Positions 39,591 to 53,421 of a stretch of DNA of 64,000 bases are shown here, piece by piece (position 1 is the first letter of the stretch; the number at the start of each line of letters is the position of its first letter). The DNA is taken from the NCBI GenBank assembly GCA_000004695.1, contig CM000155.2, positions 1,408,001 to 1,472,000 on the forward strand, given 5' to 3'. The DNA comes from Dictyostelium discoideum. Taxonomy: Eukaryota. The notes beneath the pieces are model-generated. The model saw only the letters and a program-made list of their open reading frames with translations. It was not told the DNA's origin and did no database searches. A program made the translations under genes and the position numbers.

Positions 39591-40355
39591 TGAGGAGTTT
39601 AAAGAATTTATTGAGATTAATTCTTCATATCTTCTATTAAATCTTAAGAAAACCTCAACTAATCTATTCATTACTTCACTAATTGATTTTTCATAAATTT
39701 CAACTTTAGTAATTGGGATTATTGGTTGAATATTTCTTGGTGTTGGTAATGGTGATGGTAAATAAAAACCATTATTACCATTATTAGCATTACCATTATT
39801 ATTTGTATTTGTTGAATCAATAGTTTGTAATTGTTGTTGATATTGTTTTTTATAAAGGTTATAATGTAAATCAAAATATGATTTTAAATATGATTCCAAT
39901 GAATTATATGCATTACTTAATAATTTACTATTATAATTTGATGCTGATGAAGATGAGGATGAACCAATATTATAATTATTTGAATTATTATTTGTAAAAT
40001 AACTACCACTTGTACTAAATGTTGAATATCTATAATTATTACCAATTGTTAAATAATCATAATCAAAATTCTTTAAATATTTAAATGAAGGATATGATGA
40101 ACTAATTGCATTATTTTGTGTTGGTGTATATGATGAAGTTGCTGATGTACTTTTTTGTAATTTTGGTGTTAAAGCATCATTATTAATTAAATTATCATTA
40201 TTATTATTATAATTATTATTATTATTAGAACAATTTGTTGTTGTGGTTGTTGTAGTAGTGGTAGGTTGTTGTGGTTGTTGTTGTTGTTTAACATTTGATA
40301 ATGATAGAGGTGGACAACTGGATATAATCTTGGTGATGGCAATGTTGGTGATGAG
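36957..40355 (-). CDS. patatin-like phospholipase domain protein: the C-terminal long ORF of a large Asn-rich protein. Its frame stays open upstream to about 40355 with no start codon.
   Basis: ORF 36957..39899 contains the patatin catalytic dyad motifs GSSSGG (GxSxG; DYVIGSSSGGITLLALAANKT) and DGG (NEKFRDGGNLTNNPCKLA). It also has a Cys-rich cluster (CFGCLLSVPSIECSPCGHVICSYCSIEQNGNCTICP) between poly-N tracts. Upstream the same frame reads ...KQQQQPQQPTTTTTTTTNCSNNNNNYNNNNDNLINNDALTPKLQKSTSATSSYTPTQNNAISSSYPSFKYLKNFDYDYL... with no ATG. Confidence 0.7.
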
Positions 40356-40515
40356 TAAGAGTATGATAATGAAGATGGGGTTAACATTCTTTCAATTTTT
40401 TTCATTTTTCCTAATTTATTTTCTTCTTTTTTACTACCACTATGATTATTATTACTATTATTACTATTAGTAGTAGTGGTAGTTGTAGGAGTAGAAGTAT
40501 TGTTATTATTGTTAA

Positions 40516-40579
<64 letters not shown>

Positions 40580-41426
40580 AGTACCGATATTAATAATTGG
40601 TTTAATAATTGTTTTATTTGATTTTAATTCATTGTCAATTGGTTTTTGTTGATTTATTAAACTTTCATTTATAATTGATTCGATTGATTTTAAATTGATA
40701 TTTGATACAATTGATGTTGATCTTGATGGAGGAGTTGGATGAGATGGTAATGGAGAACAAGGTTGTTGTGGTGATGAACATATATTAATTGAAATTGATC
40801 TATTTCTTGGAGGAGTTAATTGAATTGGAGTAATTTGTCTTTTTAATGAAGGTGATGGTATTGGATAAGGTTCTGAAATTGTTAAAATTTCATTTGGTTT
40901 TGATTGTTGAACAGCTTGTATTTGTTCTTGTTGTGGTTGTTGTTGTTGTTCTTGAATATCATTATTTGTTAGAACATTATTTAAAATAATTGGAGATGGA
41001 AGAGATATTGAAATCTCATCCATTGTTGATATTGGTGATGAAATTGATGTTGATAATGATTCATTAAGATCACTTGATGATAAATATGGTGATGGTATTG
41101 GTTCATCCATTAATTCTTTATTTTCATCAACATCAACAATAACATTTTCATTTACTTTTCTATTATTATTTATATTATCTTTTTCATCATCTTCATTTTT
41201 ATTATCATTGTCACTCACTAAACATATATCAATATTGTGATTATAATTTTTAATTAACCCGTTGTCGTTTTCATTTATAATTTGTAAATTAATATTATTA
41301 TTTTCAATATTTTCATTATTTTCATTATTTGTAAGGTTACTATTTTTTATATTATTATTATTATTATTAATATTATTATTATTAATATTATTAATATTAT
41401 TATTTAAATTATTACTATTTTTATTT

Positions 41427-41476
<50 letters not shown>

Positions 41477-41892
41477 TATAATATTAATATCATTATTATT
41501 ATTATTTATTGATAATAAATTTGGAGATTTTAGATTTTCAAATTCTTTTATAATATTTTTAACAGAGTTAGATGACAAGCTATGTCTATGACTTGGAAGG
41601 TGGACTTTGTTTATATTGTTTTTATTATTATTATTATTACTATCAATATTATTTTCATTATTTTCATTACTTGTAGGGTTAAATAAATTTGAATAATTTA
41701 ATAATTCATCAGATTTTTTAAAAAATAAATATAAGGTGGGGTCAGAATTTGTTGATATTGGGTCTTGGATTAATGGGAGTGAGTTTGATTTTTTATTTTT
41801 AGTAAAAAAATTTATATTATTAATGGTGTTAAAATTATTTTGAGTTATAATATTATTTTCAATTTCCTTTATTCGATTTTTTACACTATTAT

Positions 41893-41924
<32 letters not shown>

Positions 41925-42121
41925 TTATTAAAATTCGTTTTTGTAAATTCACTCCCATTACAATTACTTGAAGATATTTGATTTGGTTGGCGATTATTGA
42001 TTATATTTTTAAAATTATTATGGGATGTATATAAATAAAGTTGTGATGTATGATTTTGGGTTTGTGTGTGATTTTGTAGACTTTGAGATTTAATTTTATT
42101 TTTATTTTCATTTGATACCAT
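40187..42121 (-). CDS. Ser/Pro/Asn-rich ORF with a genuine ATG at 42121. It is probably the N-terminal part of the patatin-like gene, which it overlaps in a different reading frame.
   Basis: The 644-codon ORF looks coding (PIPSPSLKRQITPIQLTPPRNRSISINICSSPQQPCSPLPSHPTPPSRSTS...). It ends in an implausible poly-Ile tail from (ATA)n at 40187-40230, over a stretch where the +2 frame encodes natural poly-Asn. See the finding on the frame discontinuity. Confidence 0.5.
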
Positions 42122-45607: not shown

Positions 45608-45680
45608 GGTTTTATAGTGTAATTGGTTAGCACCCAGGACTTTGAATCCTGTAATCTGAGTTCGAGTCTCAGTAGAACCA
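45608..45680 (+). tRNA. tRNA-Gln (anticodon UUG)
   Basis: GGTTTTATAGTGTAATTGGTTAGCACCCAGGACTTTGAATCCTGTAATCTGAGTTCGAGTCTCAGTAGAACCA folds as a cloverleaf. The 7-bp acceptor stem is GGTTTTA/TAGAACC with one T-G pair. The D-arm is GTGT..GCAC. The anticodon stem is CAGGA/TCCTG with loop CTTTGAA, giving anticodon TTG. The T-arm is CTGAG-TTCGAGT-CTCAG and matches the B-box. The discriminator is A and there is no encoded CCA. Confidence 0.85.
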
Positions 45681-46103: not shown

Positions 46104-47853
46104 TTAATCTAAATTAAAATTATATAATCTAACTAAATTATTGAAAACACCAATAATACGAGATCTATCATAATTTACTAAACTACAGCCAGGAGTTAAT
46201 GGAATTGGATCGGATGGATTAACGATATTTGAACCACCAAGTAATGAATATAAACGATTTCCAGATTGTTTATCCCATACTTTGATAGTATTATCTTTTG
46301 AACCTGTTAAAATCTTTTTATTATCAATTGTGATACTATTAATTTGATTTGTATGATTTGAGAGTACAAGAAGTGGATTTAAATTTGAATCTAAAAGATG
46401 GACATTAAAATCACCAATATTGTAAGCTACGTTATCGTTGGTGGCCGAGAATAATTGGTGGCCGCCAGCAATTGAGAAATGATTTGATAATGATTTTGAT
46501 CCCATTAACTTTCCATTTAAAATATTATATTTTAAAATACTACGATTATTTGAGAAAACGTAAACGAAATCTTTAGTTGGTTGATACCATTGTGGGCTTG
46601 GTAATCTGAGTATTGGTCTATCGAATCTTCTTAAATCCCATGAATCTAAATAATCACTAGTGTGGACGAATAGGTGACCGTTTGAGTGAAACTTTGAGGA
46701 AAACACCTCACCACTAATCCCAACCATACCATCACCACTTTGTTTATCCCTATGATCCCAAATTTGGATTGTGTCTTTATTAGTTGCAATTATTTGACCG
46801 TCACCCCCGATATTCACATTATAATCAATTGATAGAATTGGTGATTCAGTTTTCAAACAATTTGATTCCACACCTTTCTCAAAATCCCAAACTCTAACTG
46901 AACAATCATCACTACCTGATATAACTGAATATTGACGTTGTTTAATACATGTAACACTTCCACTATGTCCTGTAAATGTTTGAGTGTTTGTACCTTTTTT
47001 CGATGACAAATCCCATACCTTTACCGTTGAATCAACACTACCAGTACACATTACATTACCAATATGCTGAATGGATGTAATAGGTTGTGAATGTCCTCTA
47101 AATGGTACCATCTTAAATGTACCTGCTGCTCCTTTATTCTCATTCTTTTCATTTTGATAACAAATTTTAAAACATTTTTTATAATCATATTCATATTTTT
47201 CTGTATTAAAAAATTCAATACTATTAAAAATAAATAGAATAAAATAAATAAAATTTATTAATAAATTATTATTATTATTTTTAATTTTTTTTTTTTTTTT
47301 TTTACATACAATTGGAATAATTTAATCTTCCATAAGAATTTATGATTAATTGCTTTATTAAATTCTTTACAAACTAATGAGAATTTTAATATCTCTTTAA
47401 CTGGAAATTCTGAAAAAATTTGTGCATAAATTGTACTTGGTAAATTTAAAATCTGGAATTTTTTTTTTTTAGTATCATAATAATTAAAAATTATAATTAA
47501 TTTTATTTATTTTTACTTACACCATATGTAATTTTTTTAATTGGTTGAGATTCTTCCATAACTACATCTCTATTATTATTATTATTACTTGTGTTGTTGT
47601 TGTTGTTATTATTGTTATTTGTGTTATTATTATTTTCATCAACATCAAAACCTTTAAGTTTTAAAATTTTTTTATTCAATTCTTTATCAATTGGTGGTAG
47701 TGGCATTTGAATTTCTTTTCTGCAAAATGGACATAATTGTTCGATATGATATGATTTCTCTATACATTCTTTACAAAATGAATGTGAACAATATAATGTC
47801 ACTGGTTCAGTGAACAATTCAAAGCAAACCCAACAGTTATAGTCATATGACAT
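46104..47853 (-). CDS. RING-finger + F-box + WD40-repeat protein. Proposed exons: 47521..47853, 47310..47452 and 46104..47220.
   Basis: Exon 1 is a C3HC4 RING (CWVCFELFTEPVTLYCSHSFCKECIEKSYHIEQLCPFCRKEI) plus a poly-N linker, ending at GTAAGT. Exon 2 follows acceptor TTCCAG and is an F-box (ILNLPSTIYAQIFSEFPVKEILKFSLVCKEFNKAINHKFLWKIKLFQ), ending at donor GTATGT in phase 2. Exon 3 follows acceptor TTTTAATAG and reads F IEFFNTEKYEYDYKKCFKICYQNEKNENKGAAGTFK then ORF 46104..47111, which has about 7 WD40 blades (GHSQPITSIQHIGNVMCTGSVDSTVKVWD; GHSGSVTCIKQ..SGSDDCSVRVWD; TGSKDNTIKVWD...). Phases are consistent: 0, 2 and 1. Confidence 0.75.
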
Positions 47854-48942
47854 TTTATAATTCTTTATATTAACCTAAAAATAAAAAAAACATTAAAAAA
47901 AAAAAAAAAAAAAAAGTTTTATTGATTAAAAATTAAAAAAATATTTAAAAAAAAAAAAAAAAAAATCTTTGATCAAAAAAATTTTCAAAAAAAAAAAAAA
48001 ACACCAATTCTTTGAAAATTTTTAAAAAAAGATATTTTGAGAAAAAAAAAAAGTTGGTTGTTATGAAATTTTTGCAGTTATATGTTTTATACCTATTTAA
48101 TATTAACGAAGGTATTTTAGTGGGTAATTTTATATTTCTTTTTTTCTTTTCTTCATTTTTTTTTTTATTTTTTTTAATTTTATCAAAAATAGTCAGTTAC
48201 CAAAAATCGATATTATTTAAATAATTTTTCTGTTTTTTAAAACTTTCACTTTTTTTTTTTTTTATAAATATTTTGTGTCTTTTATTTTGTCTACTGAAAT
48301 TAGCGTTTGAAATTATCTGTATCGTTCATAAAAAAAAAAAAAAGAAAAAGTTCGAAGTCAACAATTAAATAAATAGATTTATAAATATTAAATAAACAAT
48401 ATAAAAAAACAAAAATTAAAAAATAACTTCAATGAATATAGATTATTTTGAAATAAAAAAACTGATTTTGATAACAAATAGTAAAAACCATAATAAAAAT
48501 AAAAACTTAAAGGTGAAAAAAAAAAAAAAGAAAAAAGAATTAAACCTGTGGGATATAAAAAAAAAAAGAAAAAAAAAGAAAAAGAAAAAGAGTAAATTAA
48601 TAATTCATAAATAAAAAAATAAATATCTTAGAATTTTATTTTTTTTTATTTTTTTTTTTTTTTAATTGTTGAAAATTTTTACTTTTTATATTTGAGATTT
48701 AAAATTATGTTTATGAGTTTTTCAATCGACATTAAAAACTCACCACGTGGCTTTTTCCCACCAAGGTGAGAAAAGTTTAATTATATAAACATAAATTATT
48801 TTAGTTTGTGAGCGAGATTGTATCTAATTTAATATCTTGATAAAACATAATTTTATTGTAACAATTTAATTATTACATAATTATATTACAACAGCAGGAG
48901 TGGGGAAATATTTTAATTTATCGCTATTTTTTTTTTTATTTA

Positions 48943-49100
48943 AAATTGATTGGTGCTACATTGACAGGATTTTACCCCCTTAGGGAAATTCAAAAAAAAA
49001 AATTTGTATGGGGAAACTACCCCTTCCCCCTTTTTTTTTTATACAAAATTGGTTGTGTTACATTCGCAGGTTTCAATATAAGACCCCCTTAGGAAATGCC
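48943..49100. repeat. two copies of a roughly 55-bp direct repeat ending in CCCCCTTAGG, plus a third partial copy at about 49300-49316
   Basis: Copy A is AAATTGATTGGTGCTACATTGACAGGATTTTACCCCCCTTAGGGAAATTC. Copy B is AAATTGGTTGTGTTACATTCGCAGGTTTCAATATAAGACCCCCTTAGGAAATGCC. The partial copy is CACCCCCTTAGGATTAAATC. The C-rich motif is conspicuous in an A/T-rich intergenic region. Confidence 0.7.
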
Positions 49101-49513
49101 TCCCTCCTGTTTTTAAAATTTTTTTGGTTGCGAAATTTTTTATTTTTTTTTTTTTATTTTTTTATTTTTTATTTTTTTTTTTTTTTTTTTTTCAAGACTA
49201 CCATTTGTGGTGTTTGGGTGTAAAAATTTCAGTATAAAAGTGTTAAAAAGAAATTTATGCGGCGCTGGCCAATCAGCCAAAAATTTTTTTTTTTTTTTAT
49301 TTTCCACCCCCTTAGGATTAAATCACCATTTTTGATTTTTTTTTTTTTATTTTTTTCCAATTTTTTTTACACAATTTTTTTTACAATTTTTTTTTTCCAG
49401 TTTATATTTTTTTCTATAAATTTTTTTTTTTTTCCCAATTTATTTTTTTTTCCATCAAATCAAACAAACCCTTTTGGATAATAATAAAAACATTATACCA
49501 AATTTTAAATAAT

Positions 49514-52233
<2,720 letters not shown>

Positions 52234-53421
52234 ATATTGCGTTCACAACAAGAGGCGATATTTATTTAACATCAATGGCAACTTATTCATCCATTGAAGT
52301 TGAACCACCAATTGAAACTCCAACTCTATCACCAACTAAAACTCCAACTGAAACTCCAACACAATCACCAACTGAATCACCAACTCTATCACCTACTGGA
52401 TCACCAACTGAATCACCAACACTATCACCAACTCTATCACCAACCGAAACACCAACTCAAACACCATCTGAAACACCAACTCAAACACCAACTCTATCAC
52501 CAATTTAAACACCAACTGAAACAGATTCAACTCCCATTTCTTTCCGAGAAATTAAAATAAAAAATAAATAAATAAAAAGAACCTTTTTATTCAATACAAG
52601 CATTAATCAATATAATTGTAATTTGAAATATTATTTTATATTAAATTAAATATGAATTTTAATTCAATTGGAGAATCTCTTGAATTAATTGATGTTATTT
52701 TAAAATTCTTTAAAGATTTACTTGTAACTAATTATTGAATTTATCATTTGATTTAATTCTGATTTGATGTTATCTGTATTACCAAAATCTGATTTAATAC
52801 ATTGGAAACTGAAAAATCCCATTCGATAAGTTTGATAATATTTGAAATGAATTAATTGGTATTGTAATTGAATGTAAATTTTCAAATTGATTAACTGTGA
52901 TTAAATGGAGTGGTTCAACGAAACCCTCATCTTCAAGTTCATTTTCTACTTTAATTGATTCAACTTGTTGACCTGAATTATCCGGATCGAATAATGTTGA
53001 ATAATTGAAATGTTTTGAAAATCACAAACAACATCAGACCCATCATAAATTATATTTTTAGTTTTGAATATCTTTAATGATTCTTTATCTTCATCAATAT
53101 GATCATCATCCTCCCCTTTTCTTAATTTTTTTTTTTTTTTATATAATTAAATTAAATATAAATAAATAAAAATTAATAAATAAAAAAAAAAATTATATAA
53201 CACCGCACAAAAAAAAATACATATTAATTTTAGAAAAAAAAAAAAAAAAAATAGGAAAGATTTTTTTCGAATTGTTGTGAATTGTAATGAATTGTAACGA
53301 ATTGAATTGAATTTTGGATGGTAAATCAATGTTGGGGGATATGTTGCGTATTTTTTTATTTTTTTATTTTTTTATTTTTTATATATAAAATTTATTTTGT
53401 GGTTTTCTACTATTTATTTTA

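Follow-up and report, generated by a model that had tools for sequence, protein, structure and literature searches.

We analysed a stretch of 64,000 nucleotides of the Dictyostelium discoideum genome (contig CM000155.2, forward-strand positions 1,408,001 to 1,472,000; hereafter the window, with a G+C content of 21.9%, which like the poly-Asn tracts points to Dictyostelium), and found on its minus strand, at 46104..47853, a gene that is almost certainly the known fbxwD (fbxD, DDB_G0292312), which joins a RING finger, an asparagine-rich linker, an F-box, a helical linker and an eight-bladed WD40 propeller in one polypeptide. F-box proteins normally take their RING from Rbx1. Taken as a whole, the evidence leads us to think that the product, FbxwD, is probably a substrate receptor of a Skp1-Cullin-F-box (SCF) ubiquitin ligase (E3) whose own RING, apparently competent to engage a ubiquitin-conjugating enzyme (E2), cooperates with Rbx1, so that two E3 modules would work together in cis. 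The architecture, and the idea of an E3 within an E3, have already been in print between 2015 and 2023. What we add is the pan-amoebozoan distribution of the family, the conservation of its introns, the count of eight blades and a ranking of conservation region by region.

The coding region consists of 3 exons and 2 introns, with 530 codons followed by TAA, and starts from the ATG at 47853, the first ATG past an in-frame TAG. Exon 1 (47853-47521, on the minus strand like all parts of the gene given below; 333 nt, phase 0) encodes the RING and the linker, and is separated by intron 1 (47453..47520; 68 nt, GTAAGT...AG, phase 0, 90% AT) from the F-box exon, exon 2 (47452-47310; 143 nt), which ends in phase 2, two bases into a codon. 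Intron 2 (47221..47309; 89 nt, GTATGT...AG, 96% AT) splits that codon after 2 nt, and exon 3 (47220-46104) includes the TAA stop at 46106-46104. The spliced coding sequence of 1593 nt is in frame and gives 530 amino acids. In a search of a 5.8-billion-protein collection this product equalled the annotated D. discoideum AX4 'hypothetical protein DDB_G0292312' (100% identity, 100% coverage), a protein which has been named FbxwD, earlier FbxD (PMC10539598, Front Cell Dev Biol 2023). The single three-exon gene proposed in an earlier note on this DNA was thus recovered with exact coordinates, junctions and phases; of the three junctions with GTAAGT/GTATGT donors that it had counted, both donor types were seen, but there are only two introns and two donors. 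When intron 1 is retained, translation reaches a stop after five intron codons (...ITYGVSKNK, then the stop), and the hypothetical product of this open reading frame (ORF; 47503-47853, minus strand) would be 116 amino acids of RING and linker, with neither F-box nor WD40.

It is next to impossible that the fusion is a mere concept and its RING exon part of another transcript. Our model coincides with the annotated gene, and its introns recur in other species: intron 1 has the identical position and phase in D. purpureum (L001) and Tieghemostelium lacteum (L002), and intron 2 is kept in D. purpureum together with the 143-nt exon 2 and its phase-2 end. The intron between RING and F-box is conserved among three dictyostelids, D. 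discoideum, D. purpureum and T. lacteum. Transcriptome ORFs that are free of introns carry RING, F-box and WD40 in one frame in at least four other amoebozoan genera (Phalansterium, Vermamoeba, Copromyxa and Cavostelium). Endogenous, C-terminally tagged FbxwD runs at Mr 70,000 compared with an expected 68,430 (PMC9485057); this product is full length and includes the RING exon. Additionally, full-length constructs with an N-terminal FLAG tag, as well as point mutants of the RING, have been expressed and studied (PMC10539598). No other ORF lies within ~2 kb upstream of fbxwD (47854-49800), where long A/T homopolymer runs are found, and no neighbouring gene could have been merged into it. A merged-gene artefact was rejected on these grounds, namely the annotated identity, the conserved introns, the orthologous transcripts and the published protein size, in line with what the earlier note had argued from the exon phases and donors.

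The conceptual protein was scanned against Pfam, and every match reported here lies above the curated gathering score. A zf-C3HC4_2 match was found at residues 7-44 (32.9 bits, cut-off 27) and an F-box match, PF00646, at residues 112-153 (32.6 bits, cut-off 20.5), while F-box-like PF12937 and WD40 scored 33.4 bits (cut-off 24.3) and 78.7 bits (cut-off 27), respectively; five RING models were above their cut-offs. The order RING, asparagine linker, F-box and WD40, which had been read from the letters before, is confirmed by these matches together with the linker between them, and profile support holds for the F-box as well. The RING finger (47719..47835, residues 7-45, CWVCFELFTEPVTLYCSHSFCKECIEKSYHIEQLCPFCR) has its zinc ligands in the pattern C7-x2-C10-x11-C22-x-H24-x2-C27-x2-C30-x10-C41-x2-C44, which fits the canonical C3HC4 spacing of C-x2-C-x(9-39)-C-x(1-3)-H-x(2-3)-C-x2-C-x(4-48)-C-x2-C, and besides these eight ligands it shows the putative E2-contact hydrophobic residues and the linchpin arginine of such RINGs. 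Its closest solved sequences are TRIM21, RNF8, TRIM5/25 and RNF168, which are E2-binding RINGs.

The RING is followed by a conserved motif and helix (47656..47718, residues 46-66, KEIQMPLPPIDKELNKKILKL), in which P51 and P53 are invariant and AlphaFold2 places a helix at 57-66, and then by the asparagine-rich disordered linker (47521..47655, residues 67-111) that forms the end of exon 1. The predicted local distance difference test score (pLDDT) of the linker is <50 at residues 75-111, its asparagine-rich part covers residues ~74-94, and it is far shorter in non-dictyostelid orthologues. The F-box (47327..47452, residues 112-153, ILNLPSTIYAQIFSEFPVKEILKFSLVCKEFNKAINHKFLWK) is connected by a helical linker (47115..47326, residues 154-194, interrupted by intron 2, with AlphaFold2 helices at 149-159 and 172-188) to the eight-bladed WD40 beta-propeller (46119..47114, residues 195-526), which is supported by Pfam, AlphaFold2 and Foldseek. 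FbxwD has what defines an F-box protein, a family-profile F-box and a C-terminal protein-interaction domain, here WD40.

The AlphaFold2 model was built on an 18-sequence alignment of the family, with a mean pLDDT of 81.6 and a predicted template modelling (TM) score (pTM) of 0.66. In this model the RING is folded, the F-box and linker region (106-188) is helical, and residues 195-526 hold 32 beta-strands, equal to eight four-stranded blades; the last of these blades is most likely completed by the first strand (195-200). Foldseek against the PDB placed Fbw7-Skp1 on top (7t1z_B, E=1.5e-25, and 2ovr_B; ~455 aligned columns, target-normalised TM 0.74), and further matches were the designed eight-blade protein Tako8, beta-TrCP/FBXW11 (6wnx) and Cdc4 (3mks_D), with target-normalised TM values of 0.71-0.74 for Fbw7 and Cdc4. 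Since Fbw7-Skp1, Tako8, beta-TrCP and Cdc4 are what Foldseek ranks first, FbxwD is an FBXW-type receptor with an added N-terminal RING. A seven-bladed propeller was rejected in view of the 32 strands and the matches to the eight-bladed Fbw7, Cdc4 and Tako8, and the roughly seven blades of the earlier note are corrected to eight.

The predicted structure thus contains an F-box, a helical linker and an eight-bladed WD40 fold of the Fbw7/Cdc4 type. FbxwD shares the succession of F-box, helical linker and WD40 propeller with Fbw7, Cdc4 and beta-TrCP over ~450 aligned columns, its helical linker aligns with their F-box-to-WD40 linker in the full-length Foldseek matches, and its blades are eight in number, as in Fbw7 and Cdc4. 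However, sequence identity to the three is only ~19-25%, blades 7 and 8 of FbxwD are joined by an extra signature loop, and its N-terminal RING stands where they have a D (dimerisation) domain. Human FBXW7 binds phosphate with an arginine triad, R465/R479/R505, on the top face of the propeller. A conserved triad of the Fbw7/Cdc4 type was not found in the FbxwD family alignment, in which the register between repeats is uncertain and no register gives conserved arginines; across the propeller, only R200 and R523 are invariant or nearly so. In an alignment with an Artemia 'FBXW7-like' protein, which is imperfect and uses a reference that lacks one repeat, family members show T, K, E, N or A at the place that corresponds to 'VRC'. 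The low identity and the lack of a conserved triad led us to reject an orthology to Fbw7/Cdc4 that would include a phosphodegron pocket. FbxwD shares the Fbw7 fold, not the Fbw7 recognition chemistry.

In Fbw7 and beta-TrCP the D domain lies N-terminal to the F-box, in the place that the RING occupies in FbxwD, and the RING with its flanking helix could accordingly serve chiefly for dimerisation, as in TRIM proteins and RNF8, and so replace the D domain of Fbw7, Cdc4 and beta-TrCP. We regard this as highly improbable. The nearest solved RINGs do fit it, as those of TRIM21, RNF8 and TRIM5/25 dimerise through flanking helices, and so does the conserved helix at 57-66 after the RING. PF12125 (Beta-TrCP_D) gave no match in FbxwD, though it is listed for the beta-TrCP matches, in a search that held no dedicated profile for the D domains of Fbw7 and Cdc4; upstream of the F-box the model has the disordered asparagine linker with only a short helix at 106-113. 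On the other side, no more than 6 residues precede the first cysteine in the dictyostelid proteins, which leaves them without a TRIM-like N-terminal helix. The substitutions V9A and PF->AA, which were designed against the E2 interface, abolish function (PMC10539598), and dimerisation would itself be compatible with E2 recruitment.

In order to compare the regions, conservation was scored as the mean fraction of sequences that share the majority residue. The loop between blades 7 and 8 (0.74) and the RING (0.73) scored highest, the last blade (0.61), the F-box (0.50) and the rest of the propeller (0.46) were intermediate, and the linker (0.25) was lowest. By this measure only the loop rivals the RING, and both the F-box and the propeller fall far behind. 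The D. discoideum RING is 51-69% identical to those of distant amoebae, compared with 21-27% for the propeller. Its eight zinc ligands are invariant in 18 of 18 family members, and among the equivalents of E2-contact positions V/I9 is kept in all 18, P42 and F43 in 16 of 18 each, and the linchpin R45 in 17 of 18, with Lys in the other. We take V/I9, P42, F43 and R45 to be I383, P417, F418 and R420 of c-Cbl, respectively. The c-Cbl equivalence of RING positions follows a published alignment (PMC10539598). From zinc ligands, E2-contact residues and linchpin arginine that are conserved across Amoebozoa, we infer that the RING of FbxwD may be able to bind an E2. Outside the RING itself, the family motif LPLPP(I/V)(N/D) that follows it contains an invariant proline pair, and in the F-box L/M115 is conserved, P116 is invariant and W152 is nearly invariant.

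The other best-conserved segment is the family-signature loop between blades 7 and 8 (46188..46256, residues 481-503, RLYSLLGGSNIVNPSDPIPLTPG), an element of 23 residues with the pattern (R/K)LYSLLGGS...NPxHPxKPGCS and the family consensus LYSLLGGSLQxRANNPxHPxKPGCS, in which Y483, L485, L486, G487, G488, S489 and G503 are invariant. It is as conserved as the RING across Amoebozoa, and its 'LLGS' part survives in Entamoeba. AlphaFold2 leaves the loop free of secondary structure between strands 481-486 and 504-509. In WD40 topology a D-to-A loop is expected on the top, ligand-binding face, and by analogy the loop would lie on the top face of the FbxwD propeller. The FbxwD literature assigns no function to it; it might be where a partner or substrate docks.

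Full-length homologues with the same domain order were found in D. purpureum (60% identity), T. lacteum and Acytostelium subglobosum, with lengths of ~500-560 amino acids in the family and up to 603 in T. lacteum. In the annotation of the D. purpureum orthologue there is a fourth 'intron' of 228 nt (L001 1616-1843, GL871455.1) with a non-consensus GTGGAA donor, which removes a segment of blade 6 matching D. discoideum residues ~400-420 and may be an annotation artefact. Cluster look-ups added Acanthamoeba castellanii, Vermamoeba vermiformis, Copromyxa protea, Phalansterium solitarium, Cavostelium apophysatum and Planoprotostelium fungivorum, all six genera with the same order of domains, so that the orthologues in other Amoebozoa by which the earlier note had thought the fusion could be checked do exist; those of Acanthamoeba and Planoprotostelium are annotated genome proteins. 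All of 14 N-terminal halves from the family matched both RING and F-box Pfam models (E<0.001), and in each of them the F-box was recognised by PF00646 as well as by PF12937. A profile of the N-terminal half, from RING to F-box, was then searched against 1.84 billion representative proteins and gave 27 matches at E<=1e-30. Of the best 150 matches, 29 span RING and F-box in one stretch, and the others are RING-only (often multi-RING) or F-box-only; among the nameable members of these 29, none comes from outside Amoebozoa. Absence outside Amoebozoa is unproven, because metagenomic members (e.g. P0160, P0170 and P0256) have no taxon assignment. These three are GC-rich, with high-GC codon usage and a highly degenerate mid-propeller; all three have retained the RING, and in P0160 and P0170 the LLGGS...KPGCS loop is present as well. 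The range of the family may be wider than the Amoebozoa named here.

Divergent homologues of ~485 amino acids are present in Entamoeba, namely E. histolytica EHI_004420, E. nuttalli, E. invadens and E. marina (entries P0180, P0182, whose cluster members P0284 and P0285 are EHI_004420, and P0203). They retain a strong RING and a post-RING 'PFGRPF' motif, with 19.3 bits their F-box stays below the threshold of 24.3, and none of the WD40 profiles matched the C-terminal domain. It may be that in Entamoeba the RING persisted while decay or remodelling affected the receptor half. The fusion of RING, F-box and WD40 appears to date back to early Amoebozoa, and this age, together with the strong constraint on the RING, speaks for a RING that is central to function and against a decorative relic.

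The role of FbxwD as a substrate receptor of SCF has been shown in published work. When endogenously tagged FbxwD is immunoprecipitated, Skp1, CulE and, less consistently, Rbx1 come down with it (PMC10539598), and the interaction with Skp1 is described as direct (PMC10539598, PMC9485057); FbxD is also in the CulE interactome of Sheikh et al. 2015, as summarised in PMC9108976. FbxwD binds Skp1 through its F-box, and since it is recovered with CulE, the Cul1 equivalent, and with Rbx1, the role of receptor follows. Its binding of Skp1 is enhanced by O2-dependent hydroxylation and glycosylation of Skp1 (PMC9485057), and two proteins with VIT and vWFA domains, Vwa1 and Vwa2, associate specifically with it (PMC10539598). 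The gene resists disruption, its transcript is ~16-fold enriched in prestalk cells, and overexpression of FbxwD blocks terminal differentiation (PMC10539598). This phenotype is abolished by the F-box mutation LP->AA, and it is equally abolished by the RING mutations V9A, PF->AA and CH22/24AA, which still allow binding of Skp1 and Vwa1 (PMC10539598). The authors concluded that F-box and RING act synergistically, and proposed two ligase activities in one protein; they called a RING in F-box proteins unusual though not unprecedented (PMC10539598). The earlier note had likewise considered a receptor with its own RING to be unusual and had read it as an E3 within an E3, a reading that gains support from this published two-ligase hypothesis.

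The two activities might also lead separate lives, with the RING as a stand-alone, cullin-independent E3 and a second pool of FbxwD as a conventional receptor of SCF. The propeller would then serve as the substrate-binding domain of the RING, as in COP1, TRAF7 and RFWD3, or Skp1 would serve as a chaperone or adaptor, as in FBXO45-MYCBP2. The higher conservation of the RING than of the F-box (0.73 vs 0.50) and the Entamoeba proteins, with their strong RING and sub-threshold F-box, would agree with this, and so would phyA- cells, in which FbxwD appears to be partly associated with proteins other than Skp1 (PMC9485057). We consider it unlikely, as mutation of either domain removes the overexpression phenotype, which the authors read as synergy and not independence (PMC10539598), and as the F-box is kept in every family member examined outside Entamoeba.

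The RING could instead be regulatory. It would ubiquitylate FbxwD itself or partners such as Vwa1 and Skp1 for turnover of the receptor, or would tune the rate of chain building by SCF, as proposed for the zinc-binding region of Emi1/FBXO5. An auto-ubiquitinating adaptor had been suggested in the earlier note, the RING-like zinc finger of Emi1 is cited as a precedent for control of the polyubiquitination rate through an F-box context, and RING mutant proteins accumulate to levels equal to or above wild type when overexpressed (PMC10539598). In comparison, the level of FbxwD did not change significantly when Skp1 binding was reduced (PMC9485057), and the conservation of E2-contact residues and linchpin fits any catalytic role, not autoubiquitylation specifically. 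We judge a regulatory RING to be decidedly improbable. These three alternatives, i.e. separate activities, a regulatory RING and a structural RING, are compatible with one another.

For the cooperation of two RINGs in cis, which we prefer, the following mechanism can be proposed. The propeller, perhaps with Vwa1 as a cofactor, would hold a candidate substrate, and the F-box would bring in CulE-Rbx1 with its E2. The tethered RING, which the flexible linker would let reach the substrate, might recruit a second ubiquitin-charged E2 beside the substrate or partner on the propeller, and this E2 could work jointly with the one that Rbx1 binds in the same SCF complex, with priming and chain elongation split between them, for example. 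We put forward this particular division of labour tentatively, as a possibility that falls somewhat short of probable.

Several points weigh against cooperation in cis. E2 binding and ubiquitin transfer by the RING are so far a prediction. The E2-contact positions have exceptions, as P42 is replaced by Ala in two family members and F43 by Glu in one and by Tyr in another. In the AlphaFold2 model the position of the RING relative to the remaining protein is undefined, because the linker is disordered. The need for both domains comes from the overexpression phenotype and not from endogenous alleles, the level of Vwa1 responds neither to overexpression of FbxwD nor to proteasome inhibition, and recombinant FbxwD is insoluble (PMC10539598).

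Known systems offer partial parallels. COP1 in CRL4(DET1-COP1), a complex of the cullin-RING ligase (CRL) type, is an E3 with RING and WD40 that is also the substrate-binding part of a cullin-RING ligase. It joins its cullin, CUL4, through DET1-DDB1 and a coiled coil, and its propeller has 7 blades. COP1 is not orthologous to FbxwD, which joins a CUL1-type cullin through F-box and Skp1; its RING and propeller are among the sequence and structure matches of FbxwD, with a RING similarity that is generic (E=8e-5). The COP1/TRAF7/RFWD3 type combines RING and WD40 with a coiled coil or zinc fingers and has no F-box, whereas in FbxwD an F-box lies between RING and WD40. In CRL4-DET1 two RINGs cooperate in one assembly (PMC11864197). 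Substrates of F-box proteins are ubiquitylated jointly by two E3 modules in SCF-ARIH1 (PMC7904520) and in CRL7(FBXW8) coupled to CUL1-RBX1 (PMC9507964). The latter two are the nearest functional precedent for the mechanism proposed here, although their second E3 is a separate polypeptide acting in trans (an RBR ligase or another cullin-RING ligase), while FbxwD provides the second RING in cis, as a fusion with the receptor. In FBXO45-SKP1-MYCBP2 (PAM/RPM-1), the partner of the F-box protein and Skp1 is an E3 of the RING type, instead of or besides Cul1-Rbx1. There another protein, of giant size, carries the RING-type module, and a SPRY domain acts as the receptor, in contrast to the WD40 of FbxwD. 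Emi1, which lacks a WD40 propeller, carries its module at the C-terminus, as a ZBR/IBR-like region with an inhibitory effect on APC/C, whereas FbxwD has an N-terminal canonical C3HC4 RING with E2-contact residues. Emi1/FBXO5 has been cited as the precedent of an F-box protein with an extra RING-like zinc-binding region (PMC10539598).

A more far-reaching version would make the receptor's own RING the primary catalytic module across the pan-amoebozoan family, with the F-box/Skp1 arm as mainly a regulatory input that is tuned in Dictyostelium by O2-dependent hydroxylation and glycosylation of Skp1. FbxwD would then be an obligate cis-fused two-RING ligase, and a conserved partner of the Vwa1/VWA5A type would dock at the invariant loop between blades 7 and 8 (LYSLLGGS...KPGCS). 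The points behind it are that the RING and this loop are the most conserved segments and that Entamoeba keeps the RING while the F-box and WD40 signatures decay. We regard this version as quite doubtful; if true, it would be a design not described outside Amoebozoa.

The nearest neighbours of fbxwD in the window are a tRNA-Gln gene (45608-45680, plus strand) and an ORF starting near 49814 (plus strand). The tRNA-Gln (anticodon UUG) is convergent with fbxwD, lies ~420 bp past its stop codon, and is the sole tRNA that ARAGORN detected in the 64-kb window. A 35-nt A run is found a few bases past the fbxwD stop codon. The adjacent ORFs (40187-42121, minus strand; 50128-52233 and 52134-52508, plus strand) include a 644-residue Asn/Gln-rich protein and a 701-residue Ser/Asn-rich ORF, which is followed by an overlapping frame of (S/T)PT(E/L/Q) repeats. 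Pfam scans of the two long ones, 40187-42121 and 50128-52233, gave zero matches.

The finding is not a discovery, and the value added here is evolutionary. A fragment of RING and F-box, FbxD(1-198), already serves as a degron tool, as its fusion to a nanobody degrades tagged targets in vivo (PMC13020093). As a receptor with its own conserved and apparently E2-competent RING, FbxwD represents a natural cis-fusion of two E3 modules, and the distribution and conservation of the family make the biochemistry of the RING and its substrates worthier of pursuit. FbxwD could show how E3-E3 cooperation, such as priming versus elongation, works in a genetically tractable organism.

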